Shown here piece after piece: positions 1,770 through 43,154 of a stretch of DNA of 64,000 bases. The notes beneath the pieces are model-generated. The model was given only the letters and a program-made list of their open reading frames with translations, ran no database searches and was not told where the DNA came from. Both the position numbers and the translations under genes were made by a program. Each line of letters starts with the position of its first letter. Within the stretch, counting starts at the first letter, position 1. The stretch covers positions 9,537 through 73,536 of the forward strand of contig JALTWR010000002.1 in the NCBI GenBank assembly GCA_027046965.1, given 5' to 3'. The stretch is from Candidatus Altimarinota bacterium. Its GTDB lineage: Bacteria > Patescibacteriota > Gracilibacteria > Absconditabacterales > Absconditicoccaceae.

Positions 1770-1869
1770 CTGAAAGGGATATAAAATAAAACTAATGTAG
1801 TTATAGAAATTCAAAAAAACTTTTCAAGAGACAACCTCAAAAAACTGATATATATTTTATATCAAAGAA

Positions 1870-2670
1870 TTACTTCCATATCACACTGATCACTTGTTGC
1901 CTAATATCCTTGTGTATTTTAACAACTCCTTTTTTGATAATTGTGCCAACGCCTAGACTCTCTCCATTCCAGTAGGCTTTGATTAACATCAATGGGCGCC
2001 ATAAAATATATATCATACTGTTTGTAACATTTCCAAATATATTGTCTATCAATCTATTTGTTTTATTAACTTTTTTTACCAACAACGGAATATTCAAATC
2101 TATAATTTGTTTTGGTTGCCATCAGGGTAAAAATTCCTTTATCCATTTATTGGCTATATAAAAATTAACAACATTCCATCCCCTGCTAAATATAGGAACA
2201 GCATGAGCTATCCAATAAATCAAATAAATATCTATAGGTGCAAGGGACATATTTTTAAGCTCAAGTTGATCCTCTTCCACCCAAAAACTCAAGCAGAACC
2301 TTTTGTACTTATGGCTTTTAGTTGTCCTGATTTTTCTGAATATCCACCAAGCATATAACCTAGCAATCCATAATCTATTTTTTTGGACTACTAAAAATAA
2401 ATCTATATCAGAGTTATTATGCACTCCTCTAAAACTAATAGAATTCACCACAAAAGCTCACTTGAGAAATGGAATATCAGCTAATAAATGTTGATACTTT
2501 TTGATTTGTGCAATCAAGTCTTCTAAAATATCTCGTCTAGGATTTATATTTTCAAAACTATCATCCGCAAAATCAGGAAGTGACTTTAGATCAAACTTAA
2601 AAAATTTTTTTTCATCCTCTAGAGGAAGAGGATATTTCATAACATAATAAAACACATACGGATTAGTCAT
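1870..2670 (-). CDS. Nucleotidyltransferase-fold (Pol-beta superfamily) domain protein, 266 aa
   Basis: Three same-frame track ORFs (1870..2097, 2122..2451, 2458..2670) are joined by TGA. The motif SISFRGVHNNSDIDLFLVV resembles the GS...D.D NTase motif. The ATG overlaps the rpoD stop by 8 nt. Confidence 0.6.
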
Positions 2671-3880
2671 CTTTTTGCGAGAAATTAGTATCTCATAAGC
2701 TACTTTTTTGTTTTTTTAGATGTTCTTGCCTTTCAACATCAACATTTATACCCAACATTTTGCGTAAACCTTCATGTTCCTTTAGTTTTTGAAGAACCTT
2801 TTGCTCAATCTGCCTTACTCTCTCCCTAGTTACATTAAATTCTGCCCCTACTTGCTCTAATGTATATCTTGGTCCATCTATACCATATCTCATCTTTATG
2901 ATTTTAGCTTCTCTATCATCCAGCATTTGTAAAATTTTATTTAAGTTCTCCTTGATGACCTCCCTTTCTAAAAGCTGATCCGGCCTAAAAGTCTTAGTGT
3001 CAGGGATCAAATCACCAATACTATTTTTTCAATCATCGCCTACCTCACTATCCAAAGATATGTTTCCAAAGATTACTTCTTGTAGTCTCTTAATTTTTTT
3101 CTCAGATACTCCCAATTTCTCAGCAATTTCCTTCACAGTAGGTTCTCTACCTAATTTTTGAAACAATTCTTGAGAAGCCTTATTATAAGCACTTATCTCA
3201 TCCATTAAATGAACAGGGATTCTAACATTTTTTGTCATATCAGCGATAGCCTTAGTTATAGACTGCTTAATCCACCATGTTGCATATGTGGAAAATTTAA
3301 AGTCTTTATCAGGATCAAATTTGTCAATAGCTTTTAGAAGGCCTACATTACCTTCTTGTACCAAATCCATAAATGACAGCCTTGAACCAATGAATCTTTT
3401 GGCTATAGAAATAACCAACCTAAGGTTTGCCTCTATCATTTTCTTTTTTGCTTCCTCATCTCAGTCCTGAATTCTCCTTGCCAATTCTTTTTCTTCTTGA
3501 GCAGTCAACAAAGGAATTTTTGAAATATCATTAAAATATAGCTTTACAAAATCCTTATATTGAGAGTCTAGAGAATGATATTTTTTTTCAAACAAAGATA
3601 TACTCCCCAATGACCTTCATTGTTGCTCTCTAGCTTCTTTTTCTAAAGTACTCTCTATAGTTTCTATCTTAATACCTAATTTATCTGCAAGATCATAAAA
3701 TTTTTCCAAAATCTCTATCTGTTCATCAATGTTTTCGATTTCAGAAATAAGATCCTCTTCTACTATTTTACCAGTTTCAAAACCTTTACGTAAAAATTTT
3801 TGCAAATTAACAGGTAAATCTTGAATATCGTCCTTTAGCTTCTCCCACAAAAGTTGTTTTGTCTTTGAAATCTCAGCCAT
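2663..3880 (-). CDS. rpoD: RNA polymerase sigma-70 factor RpoD
   Basis: Same-frame ORFs 2693..3010, 3029..3439 and 3617..3880. Region 2 reads [18 protein letters not shown]...[14 protein letters not shown]. Region 4 reads [21 protein letters not shown]. The track 'stop' at 2693-2695 is TGA, so the true stop is TAA at 2663-2665. Confidence 0.9.
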
Positions 3881-3902
3881 TATATCAGTTTTAAAAATAA
3901 AT

Positions 3903-6359
3903 TTAGTTTTCTCATCTTAGCTTAAATCCTTCTGCCCTTAGCCTATCTATCACCTGCCCAAAAAAATCTTCAAAAAATCCCTTTTTCATATCTTTAGGAG
4001 CTACTATTTTTAGGGTTAGCGTTATACTCTTTTTACCCTCAGGAACTCCTCTACCTACATAAATATCTTTAAGATAAATTTGCTGAATAGGTTCCATAGA
4101 TTGCAACAAATCTATTAACTTCTTCTCATCCTCTGTAAGATCAATTACAATACTCAAATCCTTGTAAAATATATTATCAGATAATGTAAGGATTTGCGGA
4201 TGTGCAGGAGTATTTAATATATCTACTATTTTTTGTATGTCAAGTTCAACAATACCTACTTGAGCTCAGTCCTCAAATCCTAGTTTAGAAAGGGTTATTG
4301 GAGACAATGTACCTAAAAATCCTATTTCAATGCCATTAACTGTGATCATACCAAATTGCTTAATATGAAAAAAGTTACTAAAGATATCACTTTTTTTGTA
4401 TCACACATCAGCATTATTAACCTCTAGCCTAGTTAGAATTCAGTCAATAAGCGATTTAAGATGCAAAATAGGGCTATCCTTAAAAGTTTCGCTATCTTTT
4501 TGATACCACAAATAAGCTATTTTACGATATTCTTTTTGATCTTGCCAAGCTCTACCAATATCCAAAATTCTAATTTGCTCAAAATATCTAAAGTTTTTTT
4601 GTAGTACCTCAATTAGTGATAAAAACAAAAATGGCCTTAAATATGTAGAAGTTGGATCCAAAGAATTTATTATCTTAATTACTTCTTCCAAATCTATATT
4701 AGCTATTTCCAACAGTTTTTTGGAAACCCAGGGATAAGTTTCAACCTGATCAAAATGAAAATCTCTAACGCCGATATCTACCAGCTCTCTTTCAAGCTCA
4801 AATACTTTATCAATAGGATGATATTTTATTTGCTGGGTAGGAAGATGGTTTGAAATCTTATCATATCACCATATTCTCCCTATCTCTTCTGCTAAATCAG
4901 GCAAGATATTAATATCCTTAAGAGATCTAAACACTGGTACTTTAACTGTACTCCCTTGTATTTCAAATCCTAGTGCTTCCAAAATTAAATCCATTTTGGG
5001 ATAAGGTATTCCTTCAGATACTCCAAAAAGGAGTTTGTTTATCTCTTCCCTAGAATAATCTACTACTTTTTCAGGATTAAAACCTTCTAGATGCCAGCTA
5101 ATACCATTTAATTCATAATTACCTAAATCTTTTTTATAAGTTTTTAATAAGTCCAAAAATAAAATTAAAGCATAAGCTGAAAAGTTTGGATTAGGGGATT
5201 TTTCAAACCTAACCTGTGCATCTGTCCTAAGCCCCAGTCTCACTCAAGTTCTTCTAATTTTAACAGGATCAAAATGGGCAATCTCCACTGCTATGTTTTT
5301 TGTCTGAGAAGTAATTTGGGAGGATTCTCCTCATATAATTCCGGCTAATGCTAAAATCTTTTTTTCATCTGCAATAACAATATCCTCCGAAGATAAAGTA
5401 TGTTTTTCTCCAGTAAGATCTACAAATTCTTCTCCATCTTTAGCATTTCTTACTATAACCTTTCCTTCAATTTTATCAGCATCAAAAAAATGCACCGGCT
5501 GAGAAGTCAAAAACATAAATAAATTTGAAAAGTCTACCCAATTATTTTTGGGAATAGCTTTAAGATCGTACAAAGATAATCTAGTCAAAAAGGACGACTT
5601 TTTTATGGTAACATCCTTGATATGAACCAAAATATAAGTTTTGGCATCTGGAGTTTTTACATCCACTCCAATAGGTCAACCAATAGAACTATGTAATAAT
5701 TCTATCAGATTAGTATCTCTAAATTGCGCAAAAATACCTGGTAATCCATTGAATTTAATTTTAGTAGAATCTAGCAAACGATATATTGCGTTTAACTCTA
5801 CTCCTATTCCTAGGTGTCCAAAAAGGTCTGGCCTATGTGTTAAGGTTTTGTTATCCACCTCAAATACAGTAGATTCTAACCAAGGATATTTTTTAACCAA
5901 AGGAACTCATATATCAGACTCATCAATATCGTCAAAATCCTCATCTAAAATCCAAATCCATTTTTGTTCTTCGTCTTCTGGGATACCTAACTCTGATTTT
6001 GAACAAATCATTCAATTAGAGCTGATCCCTCTCATAGGCTTTGATTGAATGGTGATATCTATCGCAGGCAAAAAAGTACCATCTACAGCCACGGGAACAA
6101 ATGCTCATTCTCTAAGGTTAGTAGCACCTGTAATTATTTGTAAACTTTCTCTCCCTATATTTATTTCACACACCCAAAGTTTATCTGCATTTGGATGCTT
6201 GGTTATTTTAATTACTTTGCCTATTATTACACCAGTAGGAATCTGACGAGTCTCATATCACTCTATCTCACAGCTTTTCAAAGTAAGAAGATCTTTAATA
6301 TTTTGAGGAGAATCATCCACACTTATAAATTTTTTTAAAAGTCAACTAGAAAAATACAT
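3903..6359 (-). CDS. pheT: Phenylalanine--tRNA ligase beta subunit
   Basis: Five same-frame track ORFs (3912..5900) plus an N-terminal tRNA-binding domain: MYFSSGLLKKF...KVIKITKHPNADKLWVCEINIG. B3_4/B5-like segments are present (MRLGLRTDAQVRFEKS) and the C-terminus is FDX-ACB-like. The track stop at 3912-3914 is TGA; the real TAA is at 3903-3905. Confidence 0.9.
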
Positions 6360-6401
6360 CAGCCATATTCAATTTATTCAAGTAAAAAACTAGATGTATC
6401 A

Positions 6402-6429
6402 GTTATAACAAAAGATTATTTTTTTTCAA
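6402..6429 (-). promoter_or_regulatory. Putative sigma-70 promoter for pheT
   Basis: On the minus strand: TTGAAA (6424-6429), a 16-nt spacer, then TATAAC (6402-6407). This sits about 43 nt upstream of the pheT ATG and downstream of the hairpin plus U-tract that ends the GC-rich RNA. Confidence 0.3.
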
Positions 6430-6431
6430 CT

Positions 6432-6680
6432 AAAAGGAAACCCCACCCGGGGTACCGAGCGGGGGTGATCCGTCGGCACCCAGGGCGGGGTGTTCCCCTT
6501 AATTATGAAAGTGACGTTCGTATTTTATCCACCTTCATAGTTAAGAAGATTACCCTGGGTGCCGACGGCTTGTCCAAGCGGCTCCTGAGGTCAGGATCAC
6601 CTACTTGGCAAGGAGGAATACCTCCATTTACGCCATCGGGAGGCTACCGCGTCCTGGTGGACCATCCCTTTAGCGTTGAT
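6432..6680 (-). ncRNA. Structured GC-rich non-coding RNA, class unresolved (strand tentative)
   Basis: A GC-rich island in an AT-rich genome.
- Perfect 16-bp helix: 6470-6485 CCGTCGGCACCCAGGG pairs with 6553-6568 CCCTGGGTGCCGACGG.
- A nested 16-bp helix, 6498-6513 with 6530-6545, has one wobble and one mismatch and a 16-nt loop.
- Side hairpins: GGGGTGTTCCCC (6487-6498) and GGAGGAATACCTCC (6612-6625).
- On the minus strand the element ends in a GC stem followed by TTTCCTTTT. Confidence 0.55.
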
Positions 6681-6802
6681 TATATATTAATCACCTTTTA
6701 AAAATAAACAAAAGCTCAACTTAACTTTTTAGATATTAAATTTATGATATTTGACTATTGCCACAGCTTTATATAAAATATGCCCTAAATGCTACCTATA
6801 AG

Positions 6803-7723
6803 CTATCAACTTAATTTGTTTTTCAAAAATTCTACTATCGTAGGATCATTTTTATCTACTGTTAAACTGAGATGTGGATAAGATATAGAAATATTATGTT
6901 CATCCAGTGCCTTTTTAATAGCTTTGTTAACCCTAGATTGTATAATACCTACCGCAGCCTCAAAATTAGCAGGAGCAAAGTAAACCACTTTAAACACAAC
7001 TCAAAATTCGTTAAATGCTGATACTAACACAGCAATATTTTCTAGCTTTATTAGACCTGGAACTTTCCTAATAGCTTCCGATACTATTTTTTCAATTTTA
7101 TCAATATCTTCTAGGTGAGAGACACTAAAAGAAGAAGTAAGTCTAATAAATTCCTCCGAAGAAAAGGTTTTTAGAGGATTTGTGATCAAATCAATATTTG
7201 GAACAACCACTTTTCTCAAATCCAACAACTTCAAAACCGAATATCTCACGTTTATTTCCTCTATCCTTCCCATATATGAATAGTTGGGTGTTACAATCTC
7301 TATAATATCTCCTATTTTGAACTCTTTAGTGGTAAGTACCAAAAGTCATGCTACAAAATTTTCTAACAATTGCTTAAGGGCAAATCAAATACCTATAGAA
7401 AGACCTCATAAAAATATGGATAAATCTATTCCAACCAACGAAAAGGCTATCACAAAACCTATAGTAAATATAACATAATAAGCAATATTTCACACTAAAT
7501 CTGCCACCTTATAAGCGTGTTCATCCTTTCCCACAATATTAGATTTGATAGCTCTAGAAATCCTTTTAGATATTACAACTCATATCACATAAAAAACAAC
7601 AAGCACTACAATAGCTCCTCCAAACCCCAAGACATACTTAATCACCAAAGTTATATAGTCCTGAACAGCACTAGCTTGCTGTCCACCTCACACCTGTGCT
7701 TGGGCTAAAACCTTATTAAACAT
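6803..7723 (-). CDS. mscS: Mechanosensitive ion channel, MscS family (306 aa)
   Basis: Same-frame ORFs 6806..6997 and 7001..7342 plus a TGA-joined N-terminal TM region: MFNKVLAQAQVGGGQQ...GIDLSIFLGGLSIGIGFALKQLLENFVAGLLVLTTKEFKIGDIIE, which is the typical MscS core. The real stop is TAG at 6803-6805. Confidence 0.8.
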
Positions 7724-7730
7724 TTTTAAT

Positions 7731-8555
7731 TTATTGTAGAGTAAAAGTAAGCCAATTAAATGATTTAACAGGCGCTATTAGATTTAACTGCTTATATAAT
7801 ATTTTATTCATCTCAGAGAGAAATATCAATATTGGGACTTGCCTTTTAACCAATAAGTATCTATATACAGGGACTTTTAACTCTATGTGGATACTAGATG
7901 CTTCAAAGCTCTTAACGTTTACTAACACATTCTCACAGTCTATAAACTCCTTAGTAGTATTTTGTTGACAAATTATCTTTTTAAATTGAAGCTCAATTTC
8001 ATCAATTCTAGAAGAATACTCTACCGGCATGACTATCTCATATCTATGAATTTGCTGATATACTGCCACTGCATTTTTCAAAAAAGAAAAATTATCGATC
8101 AAAATCCTATGGTTATCAAAATCCCTTAACACCACAAAAAATACAGTAAAATCTTCGATAGTAGCAGGTATTTGCAAAGTAGGTATGTCCACTATATTTC
8201 ATATTTCAAAATTAGTGTTTTCAACAATTCGCAAAAAACTAAAAAAATTTCTCAAAGGTAAATCCAAAAAAATTCCCAAAAAAAGTCCTATAGTACCTCA
8301 CAATATAGCAACACTTCCTCCCCATAACCCCAAAATTACAACAAAGGTAACAACAACCGTTAAAACAAAAGGTAAATAGTACATCAACCACCAAAAATCT
8401 CAACTATAATCATCAACTTTAGAATATTGGTTTCGAAGCCATTCCTGAAAATATTTTCCAAATCTCAAAGATAAAACTTTACCCATCCCTCGCCCAATTA
8501 AAAATAGTACGACAGAAAGTATAACTTTTAAAATGTAAACTATTACAACTTCCAT
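7731..8555 (-). CDS. MscS-like mechanosensitive channel paralog (274 aa)
   Basis: ORFs 7731..8192 and 8400..8588 are in the same frame and joined by TGA. TM helices are followed by ...FLRIVENTNFEIGNIVDIPT (MscS beta-domain-like). The start is taken as ATG 8553-8555, 8 nt after the upstream stop. Confidence 0.65.
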
Positions 8556-8563
8556 CTTATTAC

Positions 8564-11500
8564 TTAAGTAGCTAAAGACTGTTCTCACTGAGATGGATAA
8601 TTAGCTCTATTTCTATTGTTACCTTGTTTCAATTTCTCTAATCTCTGGCTTATCCATTCATCATCGGTTCTTATTTCAATTCACAAAGCATCTTTTAAGA
8701 AATCAGCAATATTTCCCAACTTATCTCTCTTTAATCTATCCCTTAACAATCTTTTAAAAGCCTCTATAGCATCTTTAACCTCTCAAGGCAGTTTGTTATT
8801 ATATCTCCTGAGGAATACCCCCAAAGTAACTTTATCAAGAAGAGCGTCGCATTCTCAATTAAAAGTGCCGTTTTTTTCTAAACAATAATAAATTACAGCT
8901 CCTAGATCTTCTAGCCCATCAGATGTATATACCCTTTCTCCAAACCACAGAGCATACTTTTGTAATATAAACTTCATTGTCTCTTTTTCTTCTGTAGCTG
9001 GATCATTAACACCTTCAAATCATTTTTGCACACTCTTCCAAATATAGTGAGCTTGTCTTTCTTTATTAGGTGCAAAAGCACCTGTATGAGGATTTATAGC
9101 TAATCACCGCTGAACCATAACATAAGGTCCCTGAGCCCAAACATTCTCCAAAAATGGCGATTCTGGATCCATCAGATTTTCAAATATACTCTTTCATATT
9201 TCTGCCTGATTAGCACGCTGCAAGTAAGCCTCTATAGCACTCAATTCTTCTTCCTCCAGTGGCGAAAGCTCCCCTCTTTGTTTTCTTTCCTGATACCTAT
9301 ACCTTATTTTCAACAATGAACTTTCTTCATCCAAATTTGACAAAAGCAACACCCTTTTTAGCTGTTTCCCATATTCAAACCACCGATCTCGGTATTTACC
9401 TAGGATTTTATTGAAGTGTTTCGAAAAATTTTGAGGACTAATATTCTCCGGACTCCAATCAGGAGAAGCAAAACTACTAAAAGGCGGGATTCATATATTC
9501 TTAGCTATAGCATCCAAAAGCCTGACAAACCTAACACTACCCTCATAATCTATAATAAATCAATGAGCAGGAATACCAAAAGTCCTTCATAACTTCACAT
9601 AGTCGTCCAAAATATCACGAGAAAAATGACCAGACACCGGTAGACCAACTACCAAAGGAGCCAAATATGCACCTAAAGAGATATCTCCCTCTTCTTCTAT
9701 AGTTGCCTTGCTTAATAATGCCTTAAGTCCTCACAAAGCCTCCGCAACCTTCAAATCTCCAATATTTCATCTTACATCTTCAAATATTCCGGCAAAGGAT
9801 ACTGAAGAAATATTTTTGGAATATTCATCTACACTAGAGGAACTACGAGAAGCACCAAATGTCTTGATAAAGGCTTTAGGGAATTTACTACCAAATACAT
9901 TTTTAGATTTTTTATCCTTTTTAAGATTTTCAAAAATATAAACTGATTCCAAATCCCCTAAATCCTCAATTAATTTACGATTATCAGGATTGTTAGCTAA
10001 TTGTGACAGTTGCGAGTTATATTTTGCCTTAAAAGCCTCCCAATGTTTTTCTCATAATATTAATCTTACCCACACACCTTCTGAAGCATATTTGGCAAGT
10101 GCTTTTGGATACAAACTACCACCTCATCAACTTTCTGCTACAAACATTAAATATCCGGCTGCTTTCAGTTTTTCTCTGAGCGATTTTATTTCCCCTTTGG
10201 GATACTTCAAAAATAAATCTCTCTCTACTTTTCTTAGCGCTTCTCAACTGTCAACTCCTCAATCACGAGATAATAAATCTTTGTATTTGTTTATAACCCC
10301 CCAAATCTTGGAATCATACTCAGTAAAAGCATCAGCAAGTACATCTTGGAATGCTGAGCCCAAGGCTTTACCCATAAACTTAGAAAAAGCATTCTCTAAA
10401 GCCAAATAATGAAATTTTGTAGCATCAAATTCTTCCCTTTCTTTGATTTGAGCCATCCAGGCATCCCAAATGCTTTTCAATCATCCACCTATAGCTCATA
10501 TTGAAAACCACATTATTCCTCTCCCAGGCTTATGTATGCCTTGAGGAGTTTCTATTTTTTGAAATAACTCAAACTGTTCATATTGAGATTGAGTGTATCC
10601 TTCAAAACCGTTGTATCCTACCCACAATAAAAAGGAATCATAACTCATACTAATAGTAGTTGCCTTTTGTCCCCCAGCTGGAGTTATATGAACAAAATTA
10701 TTATCAAAGGAAACCTCAAATAATTGATAAAAGTCTTTGCCTCATTTTTTAGTAGGTCTTCCTACATATTTTACCTCTTCTCCTTGAAACTCTCCGCTCT
10801 TAAATGTTACCCTTCCTCTTTCCCATTTTGTCATTTTTTTCCACCAATCAGAAATCTTTTCACCTATTTTTTTATAATCATTTTTAACCTCCCACTCACT
10901 TAAATATCTACCACTTTCAACAAAATTGGGTAACTTTCTCATCTTAAATATACTAGAACCCATACTATCTTTGATATTATTAAGTCACAGAAATAATCAT
11001 CTAGAATCCACCACTACTTCTCTAGAAGCTCCATTCACAGTATCAGTAAAAGGAGTAATAATAACCCTATAAGAATTATCATCTATTTTGACAATATTAA
11101 TTTTAATCCAATCGAAAAAGCCTGCCTTTTCAAACAGAGAATTTCAACTTCATTTTGGTCTTCAAGCATAGTGAAACAATACAATCCCCTCTCAGTTTTC
11201 TAAATCTTCAAGTCTAGCATGAATCTCTCCAGAAAATTCAGATAAAATCCTTTCTGCTCTTTCTAAATAATTAGTGTCACTTTCCATATCCTGACTCTCA
11301 GTTTCATTATCTCATTGAGAAGGTTGTTGAGAATCCTCAGAAAATGGTTGCTCTTCCTCTTTACCATCTCCTCACTGAGATATATGCCCGTCTTGGGTGT
11401 TCAAAAGGAACTCCCCTAGCAAGTCTGTGCCCCTTACCCTACTTAAAAGATCTTGTATATCATTTATTGATATATTAGACTTAAAGCTAAGAAAAATAGC

Positions 11501-27593: not shown

Positions 27594-27884
27594 TTATTCT
27601 TCACTAACTTGTTCTTCTTGAGGTTGTCTTTCAACTGCATAATCTACTCTAATTTTCCTTCCATCTACTTCTGCTTCATTAAGAGCTTCTTTGGCTTTAG
27701 CTGCATCTTCTTCATTAGCAAATTCAACAAATCCGAAACCTTTACTCCTACCTGTGTCCCTGTCTCTAATTACTCTAGCGAAAACAACTTCTCCATATTC
27801 ACCAAAAATGTCCTTTAGAGCTTGCCAGTTAATACTCCATGGCAAGTTCCCAACAAATAATTTTTTACCCATTTGTATAACCAT
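27594..27884 (-). CDS. RRM-type RNA-binding protein (92-96 aa)
   Basis: RNP2 KLFVGNL and RNP1 KGFGFVEF motifs. The ORF is intact, with no TGA. The start is either ATG 27884 or ATG 27872. Confidence 0.85.
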   Translation of the reverse strand: MVIQMGKKLFVGNLPWSINWQALKDIFGEYGEVVFARVIRDRDTGRSKGFGFVEFANEEDAAKAKEALNEAEVDGRKIRVDYAVERQPQEEQVSEE

Positions 27885-27961: not shown

Positions 27962-27991
27962 AAAAAACCCCTCGCCGATTAAGACAAGGGG
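27962..27991 (-). terminator. Rho-independent terminator after the Cys-rich secreted protein gene
   Basis: Minus strand: CCCCT-loop-AGGGG followed by TTTTTT. Confidence 0.45.
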
Positions 27992-28006: not shown

Positions 28007-30946
28007 TTACCAGCTTTGCTTTTGAACCTCTTCCAAAAGATCTAGCACTCCAGGAGGCGGTAACAGCCAGAGTCTTGGATTAGTTATGACTTTCAAAGAT
28101 GCACCTTTTACTATTAACTCATAAACATTAAATGTGGAATTCCATATATTTCCCAAGATAGACCTACCGTTTTCTGTAAGAGTAACAATGCCATTTCATA
28201 TTAGGATACCTTTCACTTCTAGATCTCATCTTTTGGACCAACTCTTGTTTAAGTCATCATTGCGAATTCTAGTTTTTTGGAAGCCATTCTTTGCAATATA
28301 TATACCTTCCACTTGTTGCAATACATCTGTATTTAATGGGTCAAAAACAATGGTTCAATTTACCAACCACATACTGGAACCCTCAATGTCTCATTGAATC
28401 TTTAAATTTCCATCAATGATAAAGGTTGTAGGTTGGCCTAAACTAACATCTCCAAAGACCACATCCTCTGCAGTATAATATATTTCTGCTCATCTAGCTT
28501 TTTGCCACCTTACTCCTCATAGTGAAATATCCGATCAAATAAATATATACTTAGTTTTCAGTTTTCATATAGATTCTTCGATCTTATTTGCATCATAATT
28601 TGCAACGGTTATCAACTCTATATTGTCTTTTTCTTCTGTAGATAGCATAGAAGTTCAATCTATTTTTTTGAAATCATCGAATTTTTCATTTTCCGTAGTA
28701 GAAACAAAGCTACCAAGTTGCATCATATAAGGCCTTGTTACTACAAAATTCATTAAACATTCCCTTCCATAATCATTAGAAGGAGCCCAGTTAGCTGAAG
28801 CAGTTGCCCACTCATAATATTCATTACCATCTTCATCGGTATACTTTTGACATACCTTGGTTCATTTAATATCTTCAAATTTAATCTTATATTCACCATA
28901 TGTACTTAAACCATTTAATTTAACTCCAGCCAGTCCATCTTTATATATCCAAAACAAAGAGTTCTCCAATCAGTAATCATTTAAAAAGTCTTTAAGTAAG
29001 TTAGCACTAGACAGTCTAGTCATATCAGCATTAAAGCAGGACTCTTCCAGTCTCTTAACAATCCCTCCATTACCATCAACTATATCAAAATAACATTTTA
29101 GACTCCTTCTTTCCCACTTACCTAAATTATCCTCATTACATCCTCCATCTGCTATATTATTTCAGAGAGTATTTTTGTCTACCTTCCACCAAAAGAACAG
29201 ATATTCATTTGACATAATTGATGGAGGATCCACCCATGCACATAATGGAGCTCTTTCACTTACAAGTTTACAATCTGAAGTACACCATATAGCATTCTTA
29301 GTAGGTTCACCGTTCTCATCAACTTCTGACGGATCACATTCCTCACCATTTCCGGCTTGTACTATACCATCTCCACAATAGCCTCATCAGCCTCAACCTC
29401 ATCAACCTCAGCCTCTCCTAACTAATTCCACCCTACATTGAGTAGGAGCGTCTGTATACTTCAAATCAGCACTAGCATTAATACTACACCATATATAATC
29501 AGGAAGATCTGTATTATAACTACCTGATACAACATCCTCGCTTGTTCAATTTACAATATTTTCAGCCAATATCCTTTTGTCTGTACCAGCACTACTATCA
29601 GCTTCATAAACTCTAACAACACTAAGAGTCCCCTGTCATTTACATTCAAAATATACTGTCTGATCTCATTCGAGTTCTAATCTAGACACTTGCTGTAAGT
29701 TATCTTTTGATACCCCTACCTTAAGATATTCACAACTAGCAGGCTCCCCGCCTCATCAGCCTCAACCACCACCTTCACTCCTAGAAGCACTACATGATGT
29801 AGCACTACCACCTATCTCACATTGCCAACTTACAGATTGACCAGGCTGAGGAAATGGCACAGGATAAGGATTAGGATCACCTACTTCACAAAAATAACCT
29901 GTTCCTGTTTGAGGCCAGTCACTAACATCTGAACCAAAGTTTTGTCAGTTAGCAGGTCCACATCTTGGCTGATCTCCAGGATTAGCTTGATCATATACTG
30001 TTACAGAAGCCGTACAAGTTGAAGTAGGTCTTACAACTCAGTCGGCTATTGGAGAGATATTGTTTTGAACTGTTGCTTTTAATATGAAATTTCCTGTTTG
30101 AGAATAAGTATGAGTCAGAGGGAAAGATGGGTTATCAACTATATTGGAATCTCACAGATCCACCATCACATATTTTGCCCAATCTTGAGTAGTAGCGTTT
30201 ATTGTAGTCGTCAAAGGAACGGTTCCTGAAGGTGGATTGGGAGATAATGTACAAGTCGGTGTTTCAAGCTGACATGTAGAGCTACAACCATCTCAATTTA
30301 CATTATTTCAATCATCACATTGCTCTCAGTTATCGGCATCAACATTTCAGTCTCCACAAAAATGAATGTATATATTAAAACATTCGTTTTGAGAATATTG
30401 TATATCACCCCATATTCTTTTAGTTTGATCCTCTAATTGATACTCTTTATAGCTACCATTTTGAAATCTGTAATAATAATAATTACTTGTTTGTCACTGC
30501 TGTTTACCTTTTTCTCTCTTGTAAGCAATCTTATATACTATTTGTGCATCAGGTAATGAAGCATTCACTCCTTTTTGCTTATAAAGTGTACATCCCTCAC
30601 TTCATACTACTACCACATCATTTATGCTACCTACTTCCGTTTTAGAGGGGACCACATTAGAAACCCTATACCAGTAGCCACACCCCATAATAGAATCTGT
30701 ACCATTTTCCCAAATTGTAACACTTGTTTCCTGGTTTCTTATAAAAAGCGTGTCAGAAACATTGGAAATCAAATCTATAGGATAAATAGTCTTAGTAGTA
30801 CTATCAATATAATAATGAGCATCTACATTTGCTTCTGTACAATTTTGCTCAAAATCTCATACGTTTTGGGTATATGTAGTTTGAATAGCAAAGGTGAAAG
30901 AAATCCAAAAAGGAGTTAAAAGAAGTAATTTATAAAGCTTACTCAT
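28007..30946 (-). CDS. Secreted protein (979 aa) with two Myxococcus-type cysteine-rich repeats, a PKD-like module and poly-Gly linkers
   Basis: The track shows no standard-code minus ORF of 60 aa or more here, yet the code-25 frame is open over 980 codons.
- Signal peptide: MSKLYKLLLLTPFWISFTFAIQ.
- Cys-rich repeats: [33 protein letters not shown] and YCGDGIVQAGNGEECDP...CTSDCKL.
- C-terminus: ...PPPGVLDLLEEVQKQSW, stop TAA at 28007-09. Confidence 0.8.
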
Positions 30947-31181
30947 CAGTTTGAGGTAAAGATTTAAAATTTAAATTAGGTTTTATCTCAGATGCTTGAA
31001 TCTCTTTGTATGTTTTTCCTGAATTTATGGTATCAGCGCTCTGCTTTATTTGTACCTGCTGTAAAATATATCCATTAGAAGTTTTTTTGGACAGTCCAAT
31101 AAGCAATATCAATATTATAATAGCTAGTAAAATTACTACAAAAAATATATTATACCCTTTCTTTTTGTTTGAGGAATTCAT
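30939..31181 (-). CDS. Small single-TM membrane protein (80 aa)
   Basis: Intact track ORF. KKKGYNIFFVVILLAIIILILLIGL is a TM segment. It overlaps the GT2 gene end by 32 nt and the downstream gene start by 8 nt. Confidence 0.5.
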   Translation of the reverse strand: MNSSNKKKGYNIFFVVILLAIIILILLIGLSKKTSNGYILQQVQIKQSADTINSGKTYKEIQASEIKPNLNFKSLPQTDE

Positions 31182-32040
31182 GATACGAAATATTATTATC
31201 TAAAAACTTACTTGGAGAGCTCCTAAATTTTGAAATAATGTCTTTTTTTAAGTTTTTAGAGATTTTAAGAACTCTTTTAAAAATGTCAAGCCCTTTTGAG
31301 TTTTTAATAAGTTTATCCAGAAGTACATTGCTAAAACGCGTAGTTCTCAAGTAGAGATACCAAAATACTAACTTATTAAATAAAACATCTTCAGATATTA
31401 CTTCAAACCGCTCAAATGATTTTTCAAAACGGTGGGAAATTTTGACTGAACTTATAGCAATTTTATATCCCATCATATTGGCCCTCCATCAAAATTCTAT
31501 ATCTTCCAATCACCATCATATAAAATATTTGTTAAATCATCCTATTTGTTCAAATACCCTTTTAGGGGTAAAAATAAATGCTCATCATATAGAAGGTACT
31601 CAGAAATAAGGAGGAGATACATATTTCCATCATCATTGTAAATCATAATCTTTTATGGTTAATATGTTACCTACATAATCAGGATTTCTTAAATCTGATA
31701 TACTTGCCCCCACTATATGTTTTCCCTTACTCAAATCTACTAACTCAGAAAGCTTTCAAAAGTCCCAATAAATATGTGAATCTAAAAACAGTATATAATC
31801 CCCTTTAGCCGACCTAGCTCCCTGATTTCTGGCATATGCAGGACCTCTAGATTTATCTATGACAAGTTTTTTTATTCTTCAGTCAAAAGATGAAGTTATT
31901 GGTAAATGCTGATTATCTCAATCATAAACCAGTATAATCTCATCAATCAAATATTTATCTGGTATTCTTAAAAATAAGGAGTCTAAGGTGATGTCTACCC
32001 ATCTACCTTCATTTCTAATAGGTAAAACAATACTAATCAT
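31150..32040 (-). CDS. Family 2 glycosyltransferase (296 aa)
   Basis: Code-25 translation: MISIVLPIRNEGRW...SRGPAYARNQGARSAKGDYILFLDSH...GLEDIEFGWRA. These are GT-A fold DxD-type motifs. In frame with ORF 31150..31476. Confidence 0.85.
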
Positions 32041-32066
32041 ATCACATAATTATCTATAATAAATCG

Positions 32067-35000
32067 TTATTCATCTATTGGAGAACCCGTAGGCCTAGGT
32101 GGAGGAGAAGGAGCGGCTGTAGGTTTAGTAGTAGGTACGTCTGGAGAAGGAGGAGTAGGTGTTGGAGAAGGGGTCGGAGGAAGTGTTGGTCACTCAGTAG
32201 GCTTTGTAGTAGGCTGTTCTTTCCTTCTTTCATGTGGTTTACGCTCGTAATCCACACCTCATATAGCATAAAGCCAATCCATTCATTGATCGGGAACTAC
32301 ATCTATCGTATTAAGTTCACCTCCCTGAATTTGGTCTATAGCAACTTCCACTTTCCCTATACTTTTAACTGTAGATGGAGTTTTGGATAGTTCTCCTTTA
32401 AAATATACCCATCATCTGGCGCTTTGTCCATCTGAAGCAGCTGTCAAAGTAGATTCTTGCAATAGTCTATATCATCTGGTGGCAATATTTATCTCAGCAT
32501 CTCTTTTTCCTATCGTATTTTCCTTCTTGGCAATCACTACCTTCTCCACACGGTAACCAACCGTAGGATTAATACACTCACCATAAAGATAATATACTGG
32601 TTTGCCATATATTCTTAATTTTACCTCTCATCTAACTAACTCTTTCCCCATAAATAACTCAAGAATTTCCTCCTTAGATGAAGTGTTCACGTCCATATAT
32701 TGGTCAATTCAATAGTTTTTTAATACAGATTTTAGCAAGTCTTGAGGCATTTTTTCTAGTATTTTTCTAGACAATACCAAATCATTCAACTCAACAACCC
32801 TTCATTCCAAAACATCACCAAATCCATGAGGCAAAAGAGAAAAACTCTCTTCCTTTGATCTTTTCGTATATACCAAAGAAGCTACTATACTTTCATCGTA
32901 TGCTCTATTAGATGAAGATACATCTATCTTATCAGGATTAATAGAGCTGACAATATTGCTAAGTCTATTTGCTATATCTTCTCCCCAATTTACCTTTATA
33001 TGGTTAACAAATCCTTCCTTTTTAATTTCTAGCATCTCCCTACCTATACTTTCCTTAGTTTTTTGATCTATATGTTTTCATTCTAAATCTTCTCCAAGCA
33101 AATATTCATCGGTCAATGTCCCTTTAACAAATAATGCTAATGCATAAACTAGAGCTTCTCTATCTAAAGATCTTATCCTTTGCATGATATTATCTGTAGA
33201 GCTGATTCATAATTCTTTAGCTTTGGGACTATCTAACATTTTTTGAAGATTATCAACTGCAGCTGACCAATTCTGCTCTTTGTAAGCATTAATAAAATTA
33301 TAGTATTCATCAAACATATTTAATTTCGCCAAAGCTAACTTGTGCTGATCCACAAATTTTGAAATGTCCTTAACTTTGTCTAAAGACTCAATTTTGGATG
33401 GAGCTAGTATTTCGTATTTCCTCTCAAAGTCAGACATAACTTCCCCTGAAGCAGTTTGCTCCAGATTAACATAAACTAGCTGCAATGGATAGCTTCACAC
33501 CTCATAAGTTATCTTAATTCAATCTGGTCAATTAAAAACATTGATATCTCATCTATGAGATGGAATGACCAACTTACCATCAACTATTTTCAAATTTTCA
33601 TCTAAATCTGCAGACTTAACATCTATTCATAAGACTTTTGAAAGACTAGTTAAATCGATAACAACTCCATCAGATGTTATCTCTATCCCATTTTTTAGTT
33701 CTTCTGGGAGCTGCAAACTGTCAGCCTCATCTTGTGATTTATATATTTCAAATCAACTATTTTGAGTCTTTGAGGTGTCGCTCTGATAATCAAATTCAAT
33801 AATATCTTTGGTGCTTCCTTCCTCTACTGTATATGATATTGTGCCATCTTTTTTAAAGATAACAACCCTACTTCATAACGGAACTTCCTCACCTTTGATC
33901 TCAATAGTTTTATTTTTCTCATCAACTACCATATGCTCATTCAAAAATTCAACAGCTTCAGAAGGAAGATTTTCAAAGTTCCTAAATAATTTTTCTCCTC
34001 CATAAGACACCTTCTCAGGAGTATAAGAAAATATTTCAATATGAGTTTTACCATCAGCGGAATCATCAATCACAAGTTCTTTTATATTTTTCAATATTGG
34101 ATCTACCACTAATTGAATGTTTTTATTTTTTAATCCTCTTCTATACAATTTAACTTTTTCTGTATTTCCAAGTTCTTTTCCATTTTCTATAACTTTAACA
34201 AAAGGTGCTGTGATAAACAGTGATCAATCTTTACCAACCATAAACAAACCATACTTACCATTTTCTGGGCTATAAGATCTTTCACCCTTAAACAAACTCT
34301 CCAAAAACAATTTAGCCTCATCAGAAATATTTATTTGCGACAAAATTGTATCTTTAATCTCAATCGTTTCTCCTTGCTTAACTTCCACGCTCAACTTCTC
34401 TTCTCAAATCTTACCATACTTACCGTCAAAATTCAACAATTCCTTAAGCTTTTGAGGAGAAACTCACAATTCAGTTGCTGCATCTTTTAAATTTTTATCT
34501 ACACCAGCTTTAAGCAATCATGGCATCCATTTTATGTCTGTGGTTCAATAGTTTCATCTAATAGTTATTATTTTATCACCTACTTTGACAAACAAGGCAT
34601 TTTTACCAACCTCGGCGTTTCACACCTGCTTATACTCAAAAACTCCTCCAATTGTTTTCATCTCATCAAAAACTTTTTTTAAATCTTCAGGTTTTGATAC
34701 TATCCCCAAGTCTATCATATATCCAACCACCTCTTTTACTAGTTTGTCTGCATCTATGTTGTATCTTTCATTTTTATCAAAATCTAAATCATGCTCTTCC
34801 TCCCCCAAAAAATTCTTAACTCACCTAAGAGACAAAAATCTTTTTTTAAATTGTTGATACTCTCTAGTGCTCATAAGACTTTCCAAAGTCACTTTACTTG
34901 ATTCTGACAATACATCATTTAAGCTTTCTCATTTAACCCTCAAAGGTTTTACTATTTCTGCCTTCAAATTTGCCAACTCTTGTTGGATTTCTTCTGTGGA

Positions 35001-35345
35001 AATTTCAAAGTCCCTCAAAATTTCAAAAGCTTTAACTAGGACACCAAGAGCATTCAAAAAATCCTCCAATTGTTGTCTTTTTTTCTCATCTAGAGGTAGA
35101 TCTTTAACATGAGATTCTATCTCTGCTAACAGCGTTGGGGCTTTACTGCTAGATGCATTGAACCTATCTATCAAACCATATAAATAATCATTGTCTGCCC
35201 CTAAATTACTATCAAGCCAGTCCTTTAAAGCATCCTTTAATTCAATTTGATATTCAAACAACTCTTTTTCTTCCTCGTATATATCTCTCACAACTTCTTT
35301 TCTAGCATTCCCCATGGATAGGGCCTCTTGCATTTGTGTAGACAT
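32067..35345 (-). CDS. Large hypothetical protein (1092 aa) with a Pro/Thr-rich C-terminal tail
   Basis: Five same-frame ORFs (32802..35345). I hand-translated 32067-32802 and the frame is open except for TGA. The tail reads ...KEQPTTKPTEGPTLPPTPSPTPTPPSPDVPTTKPTAAPSPPPRPTGSPIDE. ATG at 35343-45. No signal peptide seen. Confidence 0.75.
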
Positions 35346-37546: not shown

Positions 37547-38083
37547 ATGAGCAAAATATTGTATTTACTCCGCCATGCCAAATCCTCCCGAGAAGACAAT
37601 CAATTAGATGATTTTGACAGGCCTCTCAACCCCAGAGGGCTACATGACGCTCATCTTATTAAAGAAGCTGTACAAAAGAGACAAATAATGCCTGATAAAA
37701 TTTATTCATCTCCTGCTAAAAGGGCTCAGCAAACAGCTCTTATAGTACGAGAAAAAAGCCTATATTTTGAAGCAAGCCAATTGGAACTTGTCAGAGAACT
37801 ATATGATAATCATATGGACTGAGTAAAATGGTTATCAAAGTTTGTAAAAAAACTTCCTGATTTTCACAAGGAGGTACTGATAGTAGGACACAATCCTATG
37901 CTAGAAGAGACCTTTCATTATCTAACAGGGAAATTTGTCTATTTTAGTACTTGAACACTAGCAGCCATAAAATTTCCTCTAGACAGCCGAAAAGAAGTAG
38001 GCCCACAAAGCGGTAAAAAATTGTTCGTTGACAAACCTTCTATCTTCAAGAACTACAAAGAGCGAGCTCTAAACAATCTGTAA
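37547..38083 (+). CDS. sixA: Histidine phosphatase family protein (SixA-like, 178 aa)
   Basis: LYLLRHAKS catalytic RH motif, then ...LIVGHNP after two TGA read-throughs. Stop TAA at 38081-83. Confidence 0.7.
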
Positions 38084-39039
38084 GTACCCACTGCTAAAAT
38101 CACAATTCGAAATGCAGCTAATATCAAAATCACAGGTGCCAAGTACTGGTTAAGATAGCTTTTTTTGATATAAACCTTATCCTTGTAAAAAGCATTTTTA
38201 TTTAAAAAATCTACGATTTCATCAAAAAATTCATCCAGCTGAGCTTCAGATTTTGCCAGCACAAAATCTCAGCTGGTAATTTGAGCTATCTGAGTAAGTA
38301 ATTGTTTATTGAGCCCTCCCAATTCCACATCTCCCGCTGCTGTCCTTCATATAGGTAATGACTCTGCTCATATACCTATGGTAAATATAGGAATGCCTGC
38401 CTTAGCAGCAAGTTGAGCAGCCTGTATGGGGTCAAGACCAGTATTGGAATCCCCGTCTGTTATCAGTATTAGACTGCCTGGAGGAAAGTGGTCTTTATCA
38501 GCAAATTTCAATATATTATCTATTCCCAACAAAATTGCATTTCATATGGCTGTACCCAAAAAATTTGGAGTTGGTGGAAAGTCACTTAAGCGCATAAGCT
38601 GAAGCTTTACAATTAAAGCTTTTAGATTATCCGTAATGGGAGACCAAACGAAAGCCCTTCAAGAATAAACCACAACAAACACATTTGTCTTTTTTAACTT
38701 TTTCAAAAGCTTAATTAATGTATTCCTAGCCACTTCCCACCTAGAAGGAGAAATATCCTTAGCAGCCATGGACAAAGACACATCAAATAATATTCAAACA
38801 TTATAAACTGGTTCTTTAATTATTTTCTTTTCACTTACCCAAGAAATATTCAAAGTAAATAAAACCAAAGATATTGCTAACAATCATCTGATGAACAATT
38901 CTATAGTCACCCATCACTTTTTTATTCTAGTTGATGGGACACTAAAATTGGGCTTACCTATCCAAAAAAGTAAATAACCAATTAATATAGCTACCACAAC
39001 ATAAATCACTCCCTTGTCTACAAGATATTCAAATTCCAT
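38053..39039 (-). CDS. vWA-domain membrane protein (BatA-like, 328 aa)
   Basis: N-terminal TM helices. The MIDAS-like motif is ILFDVSLSMAAKD, followed by ...LILITDGDSNTG...IPIFTIGIG and a C-terminal TM (ORF 38053..38262). Confidence 0.75.
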
Positions 39040-40884: not shown

Positions 40885-42321
40885 TTAACGTAAAAAATCA
40901 TTTCCTAAAATCAAAACAATATCTGCATCTGTTAGCAGATCTCAGCTTAACCACCCAAAAGCATAGGGATCCTGAGTCAAATATACTACATTAGTAATAG
41001 GTAAGAATAAACGCAAATTGTCCAATGTAGCTTTAAAATCTCAACTTCAAATAACAACTGCAGTTGTACCAGTTATTACTTGAGGAGAATTAGCGATACC
41101 GACCACATTAAATCAATTATTTTTTAGTAAAAATGCTGTTGGTCTAGCCATAGGTTTGAGATAACCATATTCCTTTCTTACCAGTTTTTTATCTATTCCA
41201 TTCAAAATCTTTATCCTTGCACTCTCTTTTAAAAATCCAACATTGTTTGTGATATTGAATACAAAATCCTTAATATTTTTGTAAAATTCAGGATTATTAG
41301 CTGTGGCTCATATGGGCAAAATTACAGCTGCCCCTCCAAAATCTGCTCTTGGTGGGAAATACATCATACATCCCGGAGTTAGATTTTCAAAAAAGTCTCT
41401 TTCACACTCAGCATTCAATACAAATGAAAAAAAGTACTTAATCTTATCCTTGTATCTCAAAAAACCAAGCATTTCATTTAGTGATAAATTAGTTGTAACC
41501 ATTTTGTTAAATTCTCCTCGAAGCTCCTTGATTTTGGAAGGACTCAGATAAGCTTTATCTTTTTTTATCTTTTCAAAAATCTTTTGAATCAACAATTGCT
41601 GTCTCAAAGCACGGGAAAAATCAGAAGTAGAATGTCTGGAACGAGCAAATTTTAAAGCTGTCTCTCCATCCAAATGTACTTCTCAAGCCGGTAGATAAAA
41701 AGTAGTATAACCTCCATCCTCAGTGGGATATTTAGGGTCCACAAATGGTTCCTTTAAGTATATATCCAACCCTCCAATATAATCTACAAAATCCACAAAT
41801 CATTTAAAGCTAATCAAAGCATAATAATCAGGCTTAATGCCTGTTATTTTAGCCACCTTATCCATTAAAACCTGTGCTGCATAATTGACATCTCTACCTC
41901 ATTTATAATAAGCACTTGCAAATAAAGCATTAATTCTTCCCCCTCATCCCCAAGGATATTTTACGTATAAATCTCTAGGAATAGATACAAATGTCACACT
42001 TTCTTGCTCAGGATTGTAACTAGCAAGCATAATAGAATCTGCCAACATACCTCATTGATGGTGTCTTCCCCCATAACCAACAATCAAAAAATTTATATTT
42101 CCAAATTGATCCTTTTGAGGAGGAGTCCCAACAGATGAAAGAACACGATTAATGCCCCAATTAGATAAAACAGCAACAATATTATAAAGCTTCGGAGCTC
42201 ACCATAAATAAGCTGCAATCCCTACTCATATTATCAAAAAAAGTATAAGTGACCTCATACCTTTGTAAAACCAGGAGCTTTGTTTCCTTTCCTTTACAGT
42301 TTTCCTTTTAAGCTTTCTCAT
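40885..42321 (-). CDS. LytR/CpsA/Psr (LCP) family cell-envelope transferase (478 aa)
   Basis: N-terminal TM. Motifs: NFLIVGYGGRHHQGGMLADSIMLASY...SIPRDLYV and ...LDGETALKFARSRHSTSDFSRALRQQ (ORF 41308..41673). Confidence 0.85.
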
Positions 42322-43154
42322 TAAAAAGTCAGCCAAGATATAATTTTATCTCACCATATCATCATTATCCAAAAAGCTACTATCATACCTGGCAAAAAAG
42401 GGATACTTTTGCCCATATTAAAACTTTTTAAAATAGCAGCTACCAATGCATATATTAAGCTAACTCCAGCTGCAAAAATTAAATATATCAAAGGTACAAA
42501 AATTATCAAGTCTTCCTTAAAAGGAAAAATTCATCACATCAAAAGTCCTATTGTAAAAGCAACAAATATATCTCCACTTCCGATTCATTCCATATCTTTG
42601 ATTTTATATCTTAGCTGAACATACAGCTTAGCTCCAAACCACAAAACACTAAACAAAACAAAAAACAATATTCACCATTTAATACTATAACTCCACCCCA
42701 AAGCTTCCATAAACCATCATCAAATTATCCAAAATACCAACCCTATCCACAACCGGATATTAAGATGATAAGAAATAATATCCCCTACAAGTATCAAAAA
42801 CAGTAGTCGATTTGCAACAATCCAAAAAACCAGACTAATCTTATCACCACCAAAATAAGTATTTACCCACCATCAGCTAATTACAAAAATTAAACCACTG
42901 ACCAGCTCTAAAATAGGATAAAGCCATCAAATATTCTTACCACAATACCTGCATTTACCTCTTGTGAGCAAAAATGAAACCACAGGGATGAGATCTTTGG
43001 GTGCTAAAGTATGCTTACAATAGGGGCATTTAGAACGTCCTTTAAAAATTCCCGACCATGTCTGCCAATTAATTTCTCCTTGTAATCTACTAACTAATAC
43101 CGATCCAAAAGATCAAAAAATTAACCCTAAAACAAACAATAAAATATAAAGCAT
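42321..43154 (-). CDS. pilD: Prepilin peptidase (A24 family, 277 aa)
   Basis: Zinc motif SKCPYCKHTL...GKCRYCGK. A polytopic membrane body follows, with ...IGSGDIFVAFTIGL (the second Asp motif). The track shows only antisense ORFs here because of dense TGA. Confidence 0.8.

Follow-up and report, generated by a model that had tools for sequence, protein, structure and literature searches.

What is a single glycosyltransferase (GT) gene doing between the gene for a large protein without a signal peptide and that for a secreted, cysteine-rich protein, and do these genes form one system? The locus that raises this question is a chain of four genes, P0001 to P0004, in a 64,000-nt stretch of contig JALTWR010000002.1 from a Candidatus Altimarinota bacterium (hereafter the window; coordinates are those of the window unless a contig is named). 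The host genome, labelled G000, comprises 0.85 Mb with 842 called open reading frames (ORFs), and comparisons within its family cover 141 genomes from 43 genera. We find that the outer genes appear to represent A and D, two family-wide protein families of unknown fold that are almost always adjacent in Absconditabacteria, and that the GT between them, P0002, is GT27-like. The further reading that P0002 O-glycosylates the Pro/Thr-rich (PT) tail of A in the cytoplasm, in mucin-type fashion and as part of a strain-variable cassette, seems to us about evenly balanced between right and wrong; the A-D pairing and the GT27-like character of the enzyme are much firmer.

Translated with table 25, in which TGA encodes Gly, the locus holds four co-directional minus-strand ORFs that remain open throughout, and under table 11 the same ORFs are fragmented. 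The genes and the parts of their products on which the argument depends are as follows.

32067-35345, minus strand: A-family protein P0001, 1092 aa, 26 in-frame TGA codons
32496..32933, minus strand: A-family C-terminal domain of P0001 (residues ~805-950), with the motif VYYLYGECINPTVG, placed by alignments
32070..32249, minus strand: Pro/Thr/Ser-rich tail of P0001 (residues ~1033-1092), disordered according to AlphaFold2 (AF2); proposed O-glycosylation acceptor and left end of the strain-variable cassette
30326..32247, minus strand: strain-variable cassette comprising the A tail, the GT2 gene, the transmembrane protein gene and the D N-terminal domain, delimited by BLASTN against the sister strain L072
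31150-32040, minus strand: glycosyltransferase P0002 (GT2), 296 aa, 12 in-frame TGA codons
30939-31181, minus strand: small membrane protein P0003, 80 aa, no in-frame TGA codon
28007-30946, minus strand: D-family secreted protein P0004, 979 aa, 34 in-frame TGA codons
30260..30358, minus strand: Cys-rich acidic repeat 1 of P0004 (residues 197-229), TIGR02232 E 3e-10; right end of the strain-variable cassette
28010..29269, minus strand: conserved D C-terminal domain of P0004 (residues ~560-979), ending in ...NPRLWLLPPPGVLDLLEEV, placed by alignment and without a Pfam match

The chain of tightly linked genes described in the first-pass annotation is thus real under code 25. Inspection of the junction sequences gave 26 nt between the TAA of P0001 and the ATG of P0002, one less than the 27 nt given before, and a 32-nt overlap between the P0002 and P0003 genes; the P0003 and P0004 genes overlap by 8 nt (ATGAGTAA), and both overlaps are as first described. 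Upstream lies lepA, across a 114-nt spacer with a T-run, and downstream are genes for an RRM protein, thymidylate kinase, a MiaB-like enzyme and ThiI. These observations support the view that the four genes stand as a compact block of their own, with lepA on one side and housekeeping genes on the other.

The pairing of the outer genes extends well beyond this genome. Our starting point was a class-wide search with P0004, in which residues ~520-975 recurred in many genomes of the same family and weak matches to P0001 lay a few kb upstream of the D matches on the same strand. Profiles then recovered the C-terminal domain of D from 117 of the 141 family genomes and 37 of the 43 genera, usually in one copy per genome, and the C-terminal domain of A from 77. 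The two were found on one contig and strand, with A 3-9 kb upstream of D, in 57 genomes, a count obtained by pairing the two profile tables by hand and with which gene maps of about 25 loci agree. The corresponding domain matches in the host genome (G000:C2) fall at 41816-42460 for A and 37549-38883 for D, both on the minus strand. Gene maps, of ten loci at first and of thirty later, show a recurring cluster with these components.

A, 1100-2200 aa: ends in a low-complexity tail and has neither a signal peptide nor a Pfam domain
B (optional), about 350 aa: secreted, with a signal peptide
C (optional), 620-890 aa: a secreted protein bearing DUF11 repeats
D, 1250-2100 aa: a secreted protein in which DUF11/CARDB repeats are joined to the conserved C-terminal domain

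Because this synteny is conserved in 57 genomes, a functional link between the P0001 and P0004 genes is supported, as had been suspected from the window alone.

On sequence grounds, P0004 is a compact D protein. It matches the D-family hidden Markov model (HMM) with an E value of 1.7e-128 and shares 25-29% identity with family members over residues 522-975; the family consensus ends in SPSLWxxLPPGAxEFTKxLDVYK. From N to C terminus it appears to consist of a signal peptide, a variable N-terminal domain that resembles the N-termini of B and C proteins, a Cys-rich repeat, a weak PKD-like module, Gly linkers, a second Cys-rich unit and the D C-terminal domain. Several of these elements had been proposed before and fared differently on inspection. 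The signal peptide is plausible, given a hydrophobic N-terminal segment, and the Gly linkers correspond to two poly-Gly runs. The first of two proposed Cys-rich repeats scores 39.7 bits against TIGR02232 (cut-off 20.8) and 27.1 bits against DUF4215 (cut-off 27), while the second CGDG...EECD unit, at residues 523-559, is visible in the alignment only and is not detected by the model. The PKD-like module is weak, its 18.0 bits against PF00801 falling below the Pfam gathering threshold of 23.5. The D C-terminal domain (~450 aa) gave an AF2 model with a predicted local distance difference test score (pLDDT) of 70 and a predicted template-modelling score of 0.73 that is partly beta-helix-like. A D-family profile had no match in the PDB, a Foldseek comparison of the domain with the PDB returned Ig-like noise with template-modelling scores below 0.2, and the C-terminal half of P0004, used as query in a word-indexed search, retrieved no protein but itself. 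The domain may be envelope-anchoring. We also considered a sortase-type role for the terminal LPPGA motif of D and rejected it, since neither a transmembrane segment nor a charged tail follows the motif.

The first gene is harder to place, and we take P0001 to be a short, very divergent member of the A family, judging from weak similarity and synteny. Searches of Pfam, NCBIfam and PHROGs yielded no match, and its only homologue among 5.8 billion clustered proteins (word-indexed) and 1.84 billion representatives (exhaustive phmmer) is its own 95%-identity cluster, in keeping with its earlier designation as an orphan without a signal peptide. No N-terminal hydrophobic segment is present, and neither a signal peptide nor a transmembrane segment is predicted. 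We place it in the A family because it is the sole match of the A C-terminal HMM in the G000 proteome (E 3.9e-7), carries the invariant GEC-N motif and sits in the right position. BLASTP between P0001 and A proteins gives E values of 5e-11 to 1e-4; in the alignments, Y919, C924, N926 and G930 are invariant and the motif Y...GEC.N...G is kept. The A C-terminal signature, GYTAFYR...FYLLGECxNESxG followed by a low-complexity tail, is likewise found in P0001. The remainder of the protein is only 14-17% identical to A proteins and gives no confident alignment. AF2 assigned P0001 a pLDDT of 45.7, with confidence only at residues 30-110 (helical) and 850-940 (pLDDT 78-91), so that the model was too poor for a fold search, and an A-family profile found no match in the PDB. 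A second A-like gene occurs in one relative: at G282:C6 (locus L093), positions 1387-5190 (+) encode a 1267-aa A paralogue directly upstream of A, with which it has the N-terminal ~200 residues in common at 31% identity, in what looks from the sequences like a tandem partial duplication of A.

What distinguishes P0001 most clearly is its end. The P/T/S-rich tail of about 50 residues noted earlier contains the richest 40-aa window for these residues among all 842 ORFs (75% P/T/S and 42% P), and P0002 is therefore the neighbor of the single most P/T/S-rich tract in the genome. The suggestion that this tail is a wall-spanning linker was not borne out. Such low-complexity ends are the rule in the A family and are mostly rich in Gly, Ser, Asp or Glu, as a survey of 64 A tails indicated, and we conclude that the tail of P0001 is a variable disordered appendage, not specifically a linker through the wall. 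Similarly, "surface glycoprotein" is at most a conjectural label for P0001, as nothing observed places this protein at the surface. Outside the window, G000:C2:1614-2528 (-) encodes the protein that ranks second in the genome for P/T/S richness; this protein has 304 residues and the tail SAIPLPTDPTIPETSTSPSAGTIPSSPTLPPINTSPSTQP, and could be another acceptor for the GT.

The GT2 call itself is secure (PF00535, E 5e-18), and P0002 in addition matches Glyco_transf_7C (PF02709, E 2e-9), which together indicate a GT-A catalytic domain. Its nearest PDB sequence is human GalNAc-T2, a polypeptide N-acetylgalactosaminyltransferase (ppGalNAc-T), with an E value of 1e-9 over residues 3-208; the alignment matches FLDSH (D87, H89), the WGLEDIE version of the WGxExxE motif and a distal ISH (H203). 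With a subfamily profile built from nine sequences (P0002, two relatives from within the family and six from another family), the top 12 PDB matches are all ppGalNAc-Ts, at E values of 4e-33 to 6e-29, with chondroitin synthase and further bacterial GT2s scoring less or aligning only in part. D87, H89 and H203 are invariant in the nine members. In GALNT1, the Mn site is formed by Asp209, His211 and His344, a DxH motif plus a His that complete the same kind of triad (PMC4202792). The chain of P0002 stops at residue 296 after a short helical stretch, without a ricin-type lectin domain, and contains no hydrophobic segment that could serve as a signal peptide, transmembrane segment or type-II anchor. 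For want of the lectin domain and the membrane anchor, we call the enzyme GT27-like by sequence and do not file it as a GT27 member. That it is a GT of the protein-glycosylating kind, as had been guessed, agrees with its nearest solved structures. TGA accounts for 55% of its Gly codons (12/22), against 33% for the genome, and P0002 is therefore a long-term resident of the code-25 lineage and not a contaminant. In a tree of 15 GTs it sits on a long branch whose position is not settled. Family f9 (L065-L071), a sister family of genomes with the standard code, also has ~300-aa DxH GT27-like enzymes, whose genes repeatedly stand beside those for an S41 C-terminal protease and a VanW-domain protein; at L069, a PT-rich 334-aa protein is encoded two genes from the GT on the opposite strand.

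A metagenomic sister strain, L072, is 98% identical at the nucleotide level across lepA and A up to 32248, where the tail begins, and BLASTN shows identity resuming at about 30325, within the Cys-rich repeat of D. Between these breakpoints L072 carries a non-homologous segment of 1056 nt that has no GT and instead encodes a Gly/Asp/Glu-rich A tail, an unrelated 77-aa transmembrane protein and an unrelated D N-terminal domain. The tail, GT, transmembrane gene and adhesin tip therefore behave as one exchangeable cassette, and the comparison shows that the A-D junction is a hot-spot of strain-level diversification. P0003, the third member of the cassette, has a Lys-rich N-terminus, one transmembrane segment and a polar tail of about 50 residues, without a match in Pfam, NCBIfam or PHROGs; small transmembrane genes that are not homologous to it occupy the same position in L072 and in two further genomes, G236 and G282.

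A comparison across the family gives the GT a place as an accessory. At a threshold of E<=1e-10, P0002-like GTs occur in only 4 of the 141 genomes, three of which (G000, G236 and G282, in three genera) have the gene in an A-linked context, and about 60 other A-D loci have none. The GT and the small transmembrane protein are thus rare accessories, and the GT is not a core part of the module. The three genomes nevertheless share one arrangement, in which a PT-tailed A gene is followed by the GT gene and this by a small transmembrane gene. In G236, A (tail ...DDDDDPTPTTRPTSSPTPPPRR...) is followed by the GT, a 62-aa transmembrane protein, a secreted 283-aa protein and D; in G282, A (tail PTEKPTTEPTISPTVPTIPTEPTVPTIPTVPTIPTVPTVP) is followed by the GT and an 88-aa transmembrane protein, and D lies on another contig and is not adjacent. 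Linkage of the GT to its neighbors therefore does recur elsewhere, with A in both genomes and with D only in G236, so that the refuting condition set in the first-pass annotation, absence of such linkage from other genomes, does not apply. The fourth genome, G205, has a DxD-type enzyme in a different context, within a sugar-gene cluster of ~300-aa genes. Ranked by P+T content among the 64 A tails, the GT-linked tails stand second, third and eighth, with a permutation p of about 0.003 that is not corrected for phylogeny. LepA of the GT-bearing genera is 57-61% identical to that of G000, no closer than in genera that lack the GT. A search of genome contigs with the G236 and G282 GTs found only those two genomes, and a search of metagenome contigs gave four weak matches only. 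The G236 record used here (CAYMVT010000008.1, locus L135) is titled 'Candidatus Peribacteria'; it reads TGA as sense (33 in lepA) and groups with Absconditabacteria, so the label is probably wrong.

Taken together, gene structure, homologies, synteny, the co-variation of GT and PT tail and the strain-level swap suggest a mechanism, in which substrate, sugar and cellular location are inferred. On this reading the locus is the local version of the A-D operon conserved across the Absconditabacteria (SR1) family. D is an adhesin-like surface protein exported by Sec, with a variable N-terminal "business end" and the conserved ~450-aa C-terminal domain, and the A-D junction here carries an accessory cassette made up of the PT tail, the GT27-like P0002, P0003 and a strain-specific D N-terminus. 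P0002 might then use a uridine diphosphate (UDP)-sugar donor of the N-acetylgalactosamine (GalNAc) or N-acetylglucosamine (GlcNAc) type, with a metal held by D87, H89 and H203, and transfer the sugar to Thr and Ser in the TP/SP-rich A tail much as animal GalNAc-transferases modify mucin domains; candidate acceptor peptides are PTLPPTPSPTPTPPSP. A single epimerase-family gene in G000 might provide a 4-epimer sugar. Since P0002 lacks a signal peptide and a transmembrane segment, any glycosylation would be cytoplasmic, and such a modification fits because A lacks both features as well. The product would be a mucin-like appendage on A, and A and D would probably act jointly in host attachment or in the envelope architecture of the episymbiont. 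Of the two large proteins, A is the likelier substrate because the GT gene of G282 adjoins A, and D is encoded elsewhere; the Cys-rich secreted protein is disfavored on the same grounds. What survives of the proposed dedicated surface-glycoprotein or adhesin module is therefore the A-D link, the type of GT and its tracking of PT tails, and what falls away is the GT as core; a secreted substrate is less likely, and a surface location of A is conjectural.

Several observations weigh against glycosylation of the A tail by P0002. The association between GT and PT tail runs in one direction: the strongest PT tail of the 64 belongs to an A gene at 6262-11091 (-) of locus L087 (G245:C1:842000-856000; tail ...TPSETPKESQVPNTPAVSETPVTPEIKETPAPVEPS...), from a genome that has no P0002-like GT, and the Pro-rich tails of G207, G205 and G222 also occur in genomes that lack one. 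The PT stretch of G236 is only about 15 residues long. The GTs of family f9, which share 25-30% identity with P0002 and have the DxH motif, adjoin genes for an S41 peptidase, VanW or MurC and not PT-rich proteins, so that the P0002 subfamily is not intrinsically tied to PT tails. P0002 is only 29-32% identical to the G236 and G282 GTs, at which level a common origin of the three arrangements is not established from sequence, and the independent gain or loss events behind the association may be as few as two. In addition, A has no known export route, which leaves the purpose of glycosylating it obscure, and the very assignment of P0001 to the A family leans on weak similarity plus synteny.

The likeliest alternative is that the GT2 is an envelope-glycan or glycolipid enzyme, acting for example on a wall polysaccharide or a teichoic-like polymer, that has landed in a recombination-prone junction, with the PT tail as an unrelated linker. 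The closest GTs outside the family do have S41 peptidase, VanW and MurC genes as neighbors, some A tails rich in PT or Pro occur without such a GT, G000 has five GT2-family genes in all, and the junction is a demonstrable swap hot-spot. We nevertheless judge this explanation unlikely. A chance landing sits poorly with the same order of PT-tailed A, GT and small transmembrane gene in three genera whose LepA proteins are 57-61% identical to that of G000 and no closer than those of GT-less genera, or with the joint loss or gain of GT and PT tail between near-identical strains. Furthermore, the best structural relatives of P0002 O-glycosylate proteins and are not polysaccharide GT2s, and the chain offers no flippase, polymerase or priming transferase.

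Alternatively, the GT2 may act on secreted D, on the small transmembrane protein or on several proteins, either before export or through a lipid-linked intermediate, to yield a glycosylated adhesin. The position of the GT within the operon and its 32-nt overlap with the transmembrane gene would suit such a role, as would the exchange of the D N-terminal domain along with the GT between strains, some Thr/Pro-rich stretches in D and the second PT-rich protein at G000:C2:1614-2528. We consider it improbable, however, because the GT has neither a signal peptide nor a transmembrane segment, D is exported by Sec, no oligosaccharyltransferase or flippase is encoded nearby, the G282 GT keeps company with A and not with D, and the D proteins of GT-less genomes show no obvious difference. 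The remaining possibility, that the chain is a module derived from a phage or mobile element (tail- or fiber-like genes plus a moron GT) and not a cellular operon, takes some encouragement from the tail-module-like succession of a large helical protein, smaller ones and a large variable protein and from a weak PHROG glycosyltransferase match of P0002 (E 4.5e-6), yet it is very improbable for a single-copy, family-wide locus with housekeeping flanks, signal peptides on B, C and D, no PHROG match for P0001, P0003 or P0004 and no integrase, terminase or capsid genes. A specific phage tail-module version, with a TMP-Dit-Tal-RBP-like order of sizes, was rejected because of the signal peptides of B, C and D and the absence of phage genes.

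A more far-reaching proposal can also be made, which we put forward as tentative and on balance doubtful. The PT tail, a lectin-less cytoplasmic GT27-type polypeptide GT, the small transmembrane protein and a new adhesin tip might constitute a swappable "mucin cassette" that moves as a unit, by recombination between the conserved flanks provided by the A body and the Cys-rich repeat of D. Animal mucin-type O-glycosylation would then have a counterpart in the cytoplasm of prokaryotes, possibly a relative of its ancestor, and A would be a non-classically exported or envelope glycoprotein that works with D. An episymbiont equipped in this way could re-dress a conserved attachment apparatus.

Modification of the A tail by P0002 would parallel the bacterial adhesin-glycosylation pairs in its logic and the initiation of animal mucin glycans in its type of enzyme. 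To our knowledge, GT27 enzymes are regarded as essentially eukaryotic initiators of mucin-type O-glycosylation. P0002 is like the eukaryotic ppGalNAc-Ts (CAZy GT27; human GalNAc-T1, -T2, -T10 and -T12) in its GT-A fold, its Glycos_transf_2 and Glyco_transf_7C signatures, the DxH motif, the distal His and WGxExxE, and its putative acceptor is likewise a disordered segment rich in Pro, Thr and Ser. It differs in being a soluble bacterial protein of 296 aa without a ricin-type lectin domain, type-II anchor or Golgi lumen, at 25-30% identity at best, with its putative substrate encoded next to it; its donor and any retaining chemistry are conjectural. A literature search of limited coverage turned up no account of a GT27-like enzyme in bacteria being paired with a PT-tailed protein.

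The cytoplasmic adhesin pairs of bacteria (serine-rich repeat adhesins with GtfA/GtfB and dGT1/GalT1, HMW1-HMW1C, TibA-TibC and AIDA-I-Aah) offer the other half of the comparison, as in each a soluble GT is encoded beside a substrate with a low-complexity target; GalT1 (PDB 5HEA) is also among the PDB matches of P0002. Their enzymes are GT-B/GT4, GT41 or heptosyltransferases, whereas P0002 is a GT27-like GT-A, and their substrates leave the cell by accessory Sec, two-partner secretion or as autotransporters, whereas A has no signal peptide. No accessory secretion genes are present at the chain. The protein O-mannosyltransferases (PMT/GT39) that modify secreted enzymes of actinobacteria and fungi also use disordered Pro/Thr-rich linkers as O-glycan acceptors; they are, however, membrane-bound GT-C enzymes that take mannose from a lipid carrier and act on the outer face during Sec export, unlike a soluble nucleotide-sugar GT-A with a non-secreted substrate.

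Absconditabacteria live as episymbionts and predators and are uncultured. In the account of Vampirococcus lugosii, giant DUF11/PKD membrane or surface proteins are described as serving host attachment, which agrees with the DUF11/CARDB repeats and signal peptides of the D proteins of relatives; a term search of that account found no mention of the D C-terminal domain, the upstream partner A or the GT cassette (PMC8080830). A minimal, lectin-less bacterial relative of GT27 beside a probable Pro/Thr acceptor would amount to a directly testable two-gene model. The pair of P0002 and A tail would bear on the origin of mucin-type chemistry and could serve glyco-engineering.

Two signals bear on the transcription of the chain.

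31262..31289, minus strand: sigma-70-like site TTGACA-16-TAAAAT, 11/12, the best of the region; a consensus match only
27962..27991, minus strand: G+C-rich terminator-like hairpin CCCCTTG...CGAGGGG plus T6 (hairpin ~27968-27991), 16 nt past the P0004 stop

The sigma-70-like site lies within the 3' end of the P0002 gene, ~80 nt upstream of the P0003 gene, and may be an internal promoter that gives P0003 and P0004 a separate transcript. The terminator reported earlier after the last gene was found as a hairpin with a T-run, and a terminator scanner called a site overlapping it at 27975-27948. Directly 3' of the chain, at 27594-27884 (-), the RRM protein has 96 aa and an RRM_1 domain of eukaryote type (E 1e-28). 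On the other flank, lepA is intact in G000 and apparently split in G245, G257, G304, G166, G231, G287, G313, G268 and G173, where the GTPase domain (residues ~1-190) and the remainder (~194-655) match separate ORFs; in several of these genomes the two halves occupy distant loci or different contigs, for example G245:C1:735387-735950 and G245:C1:87585-89012.

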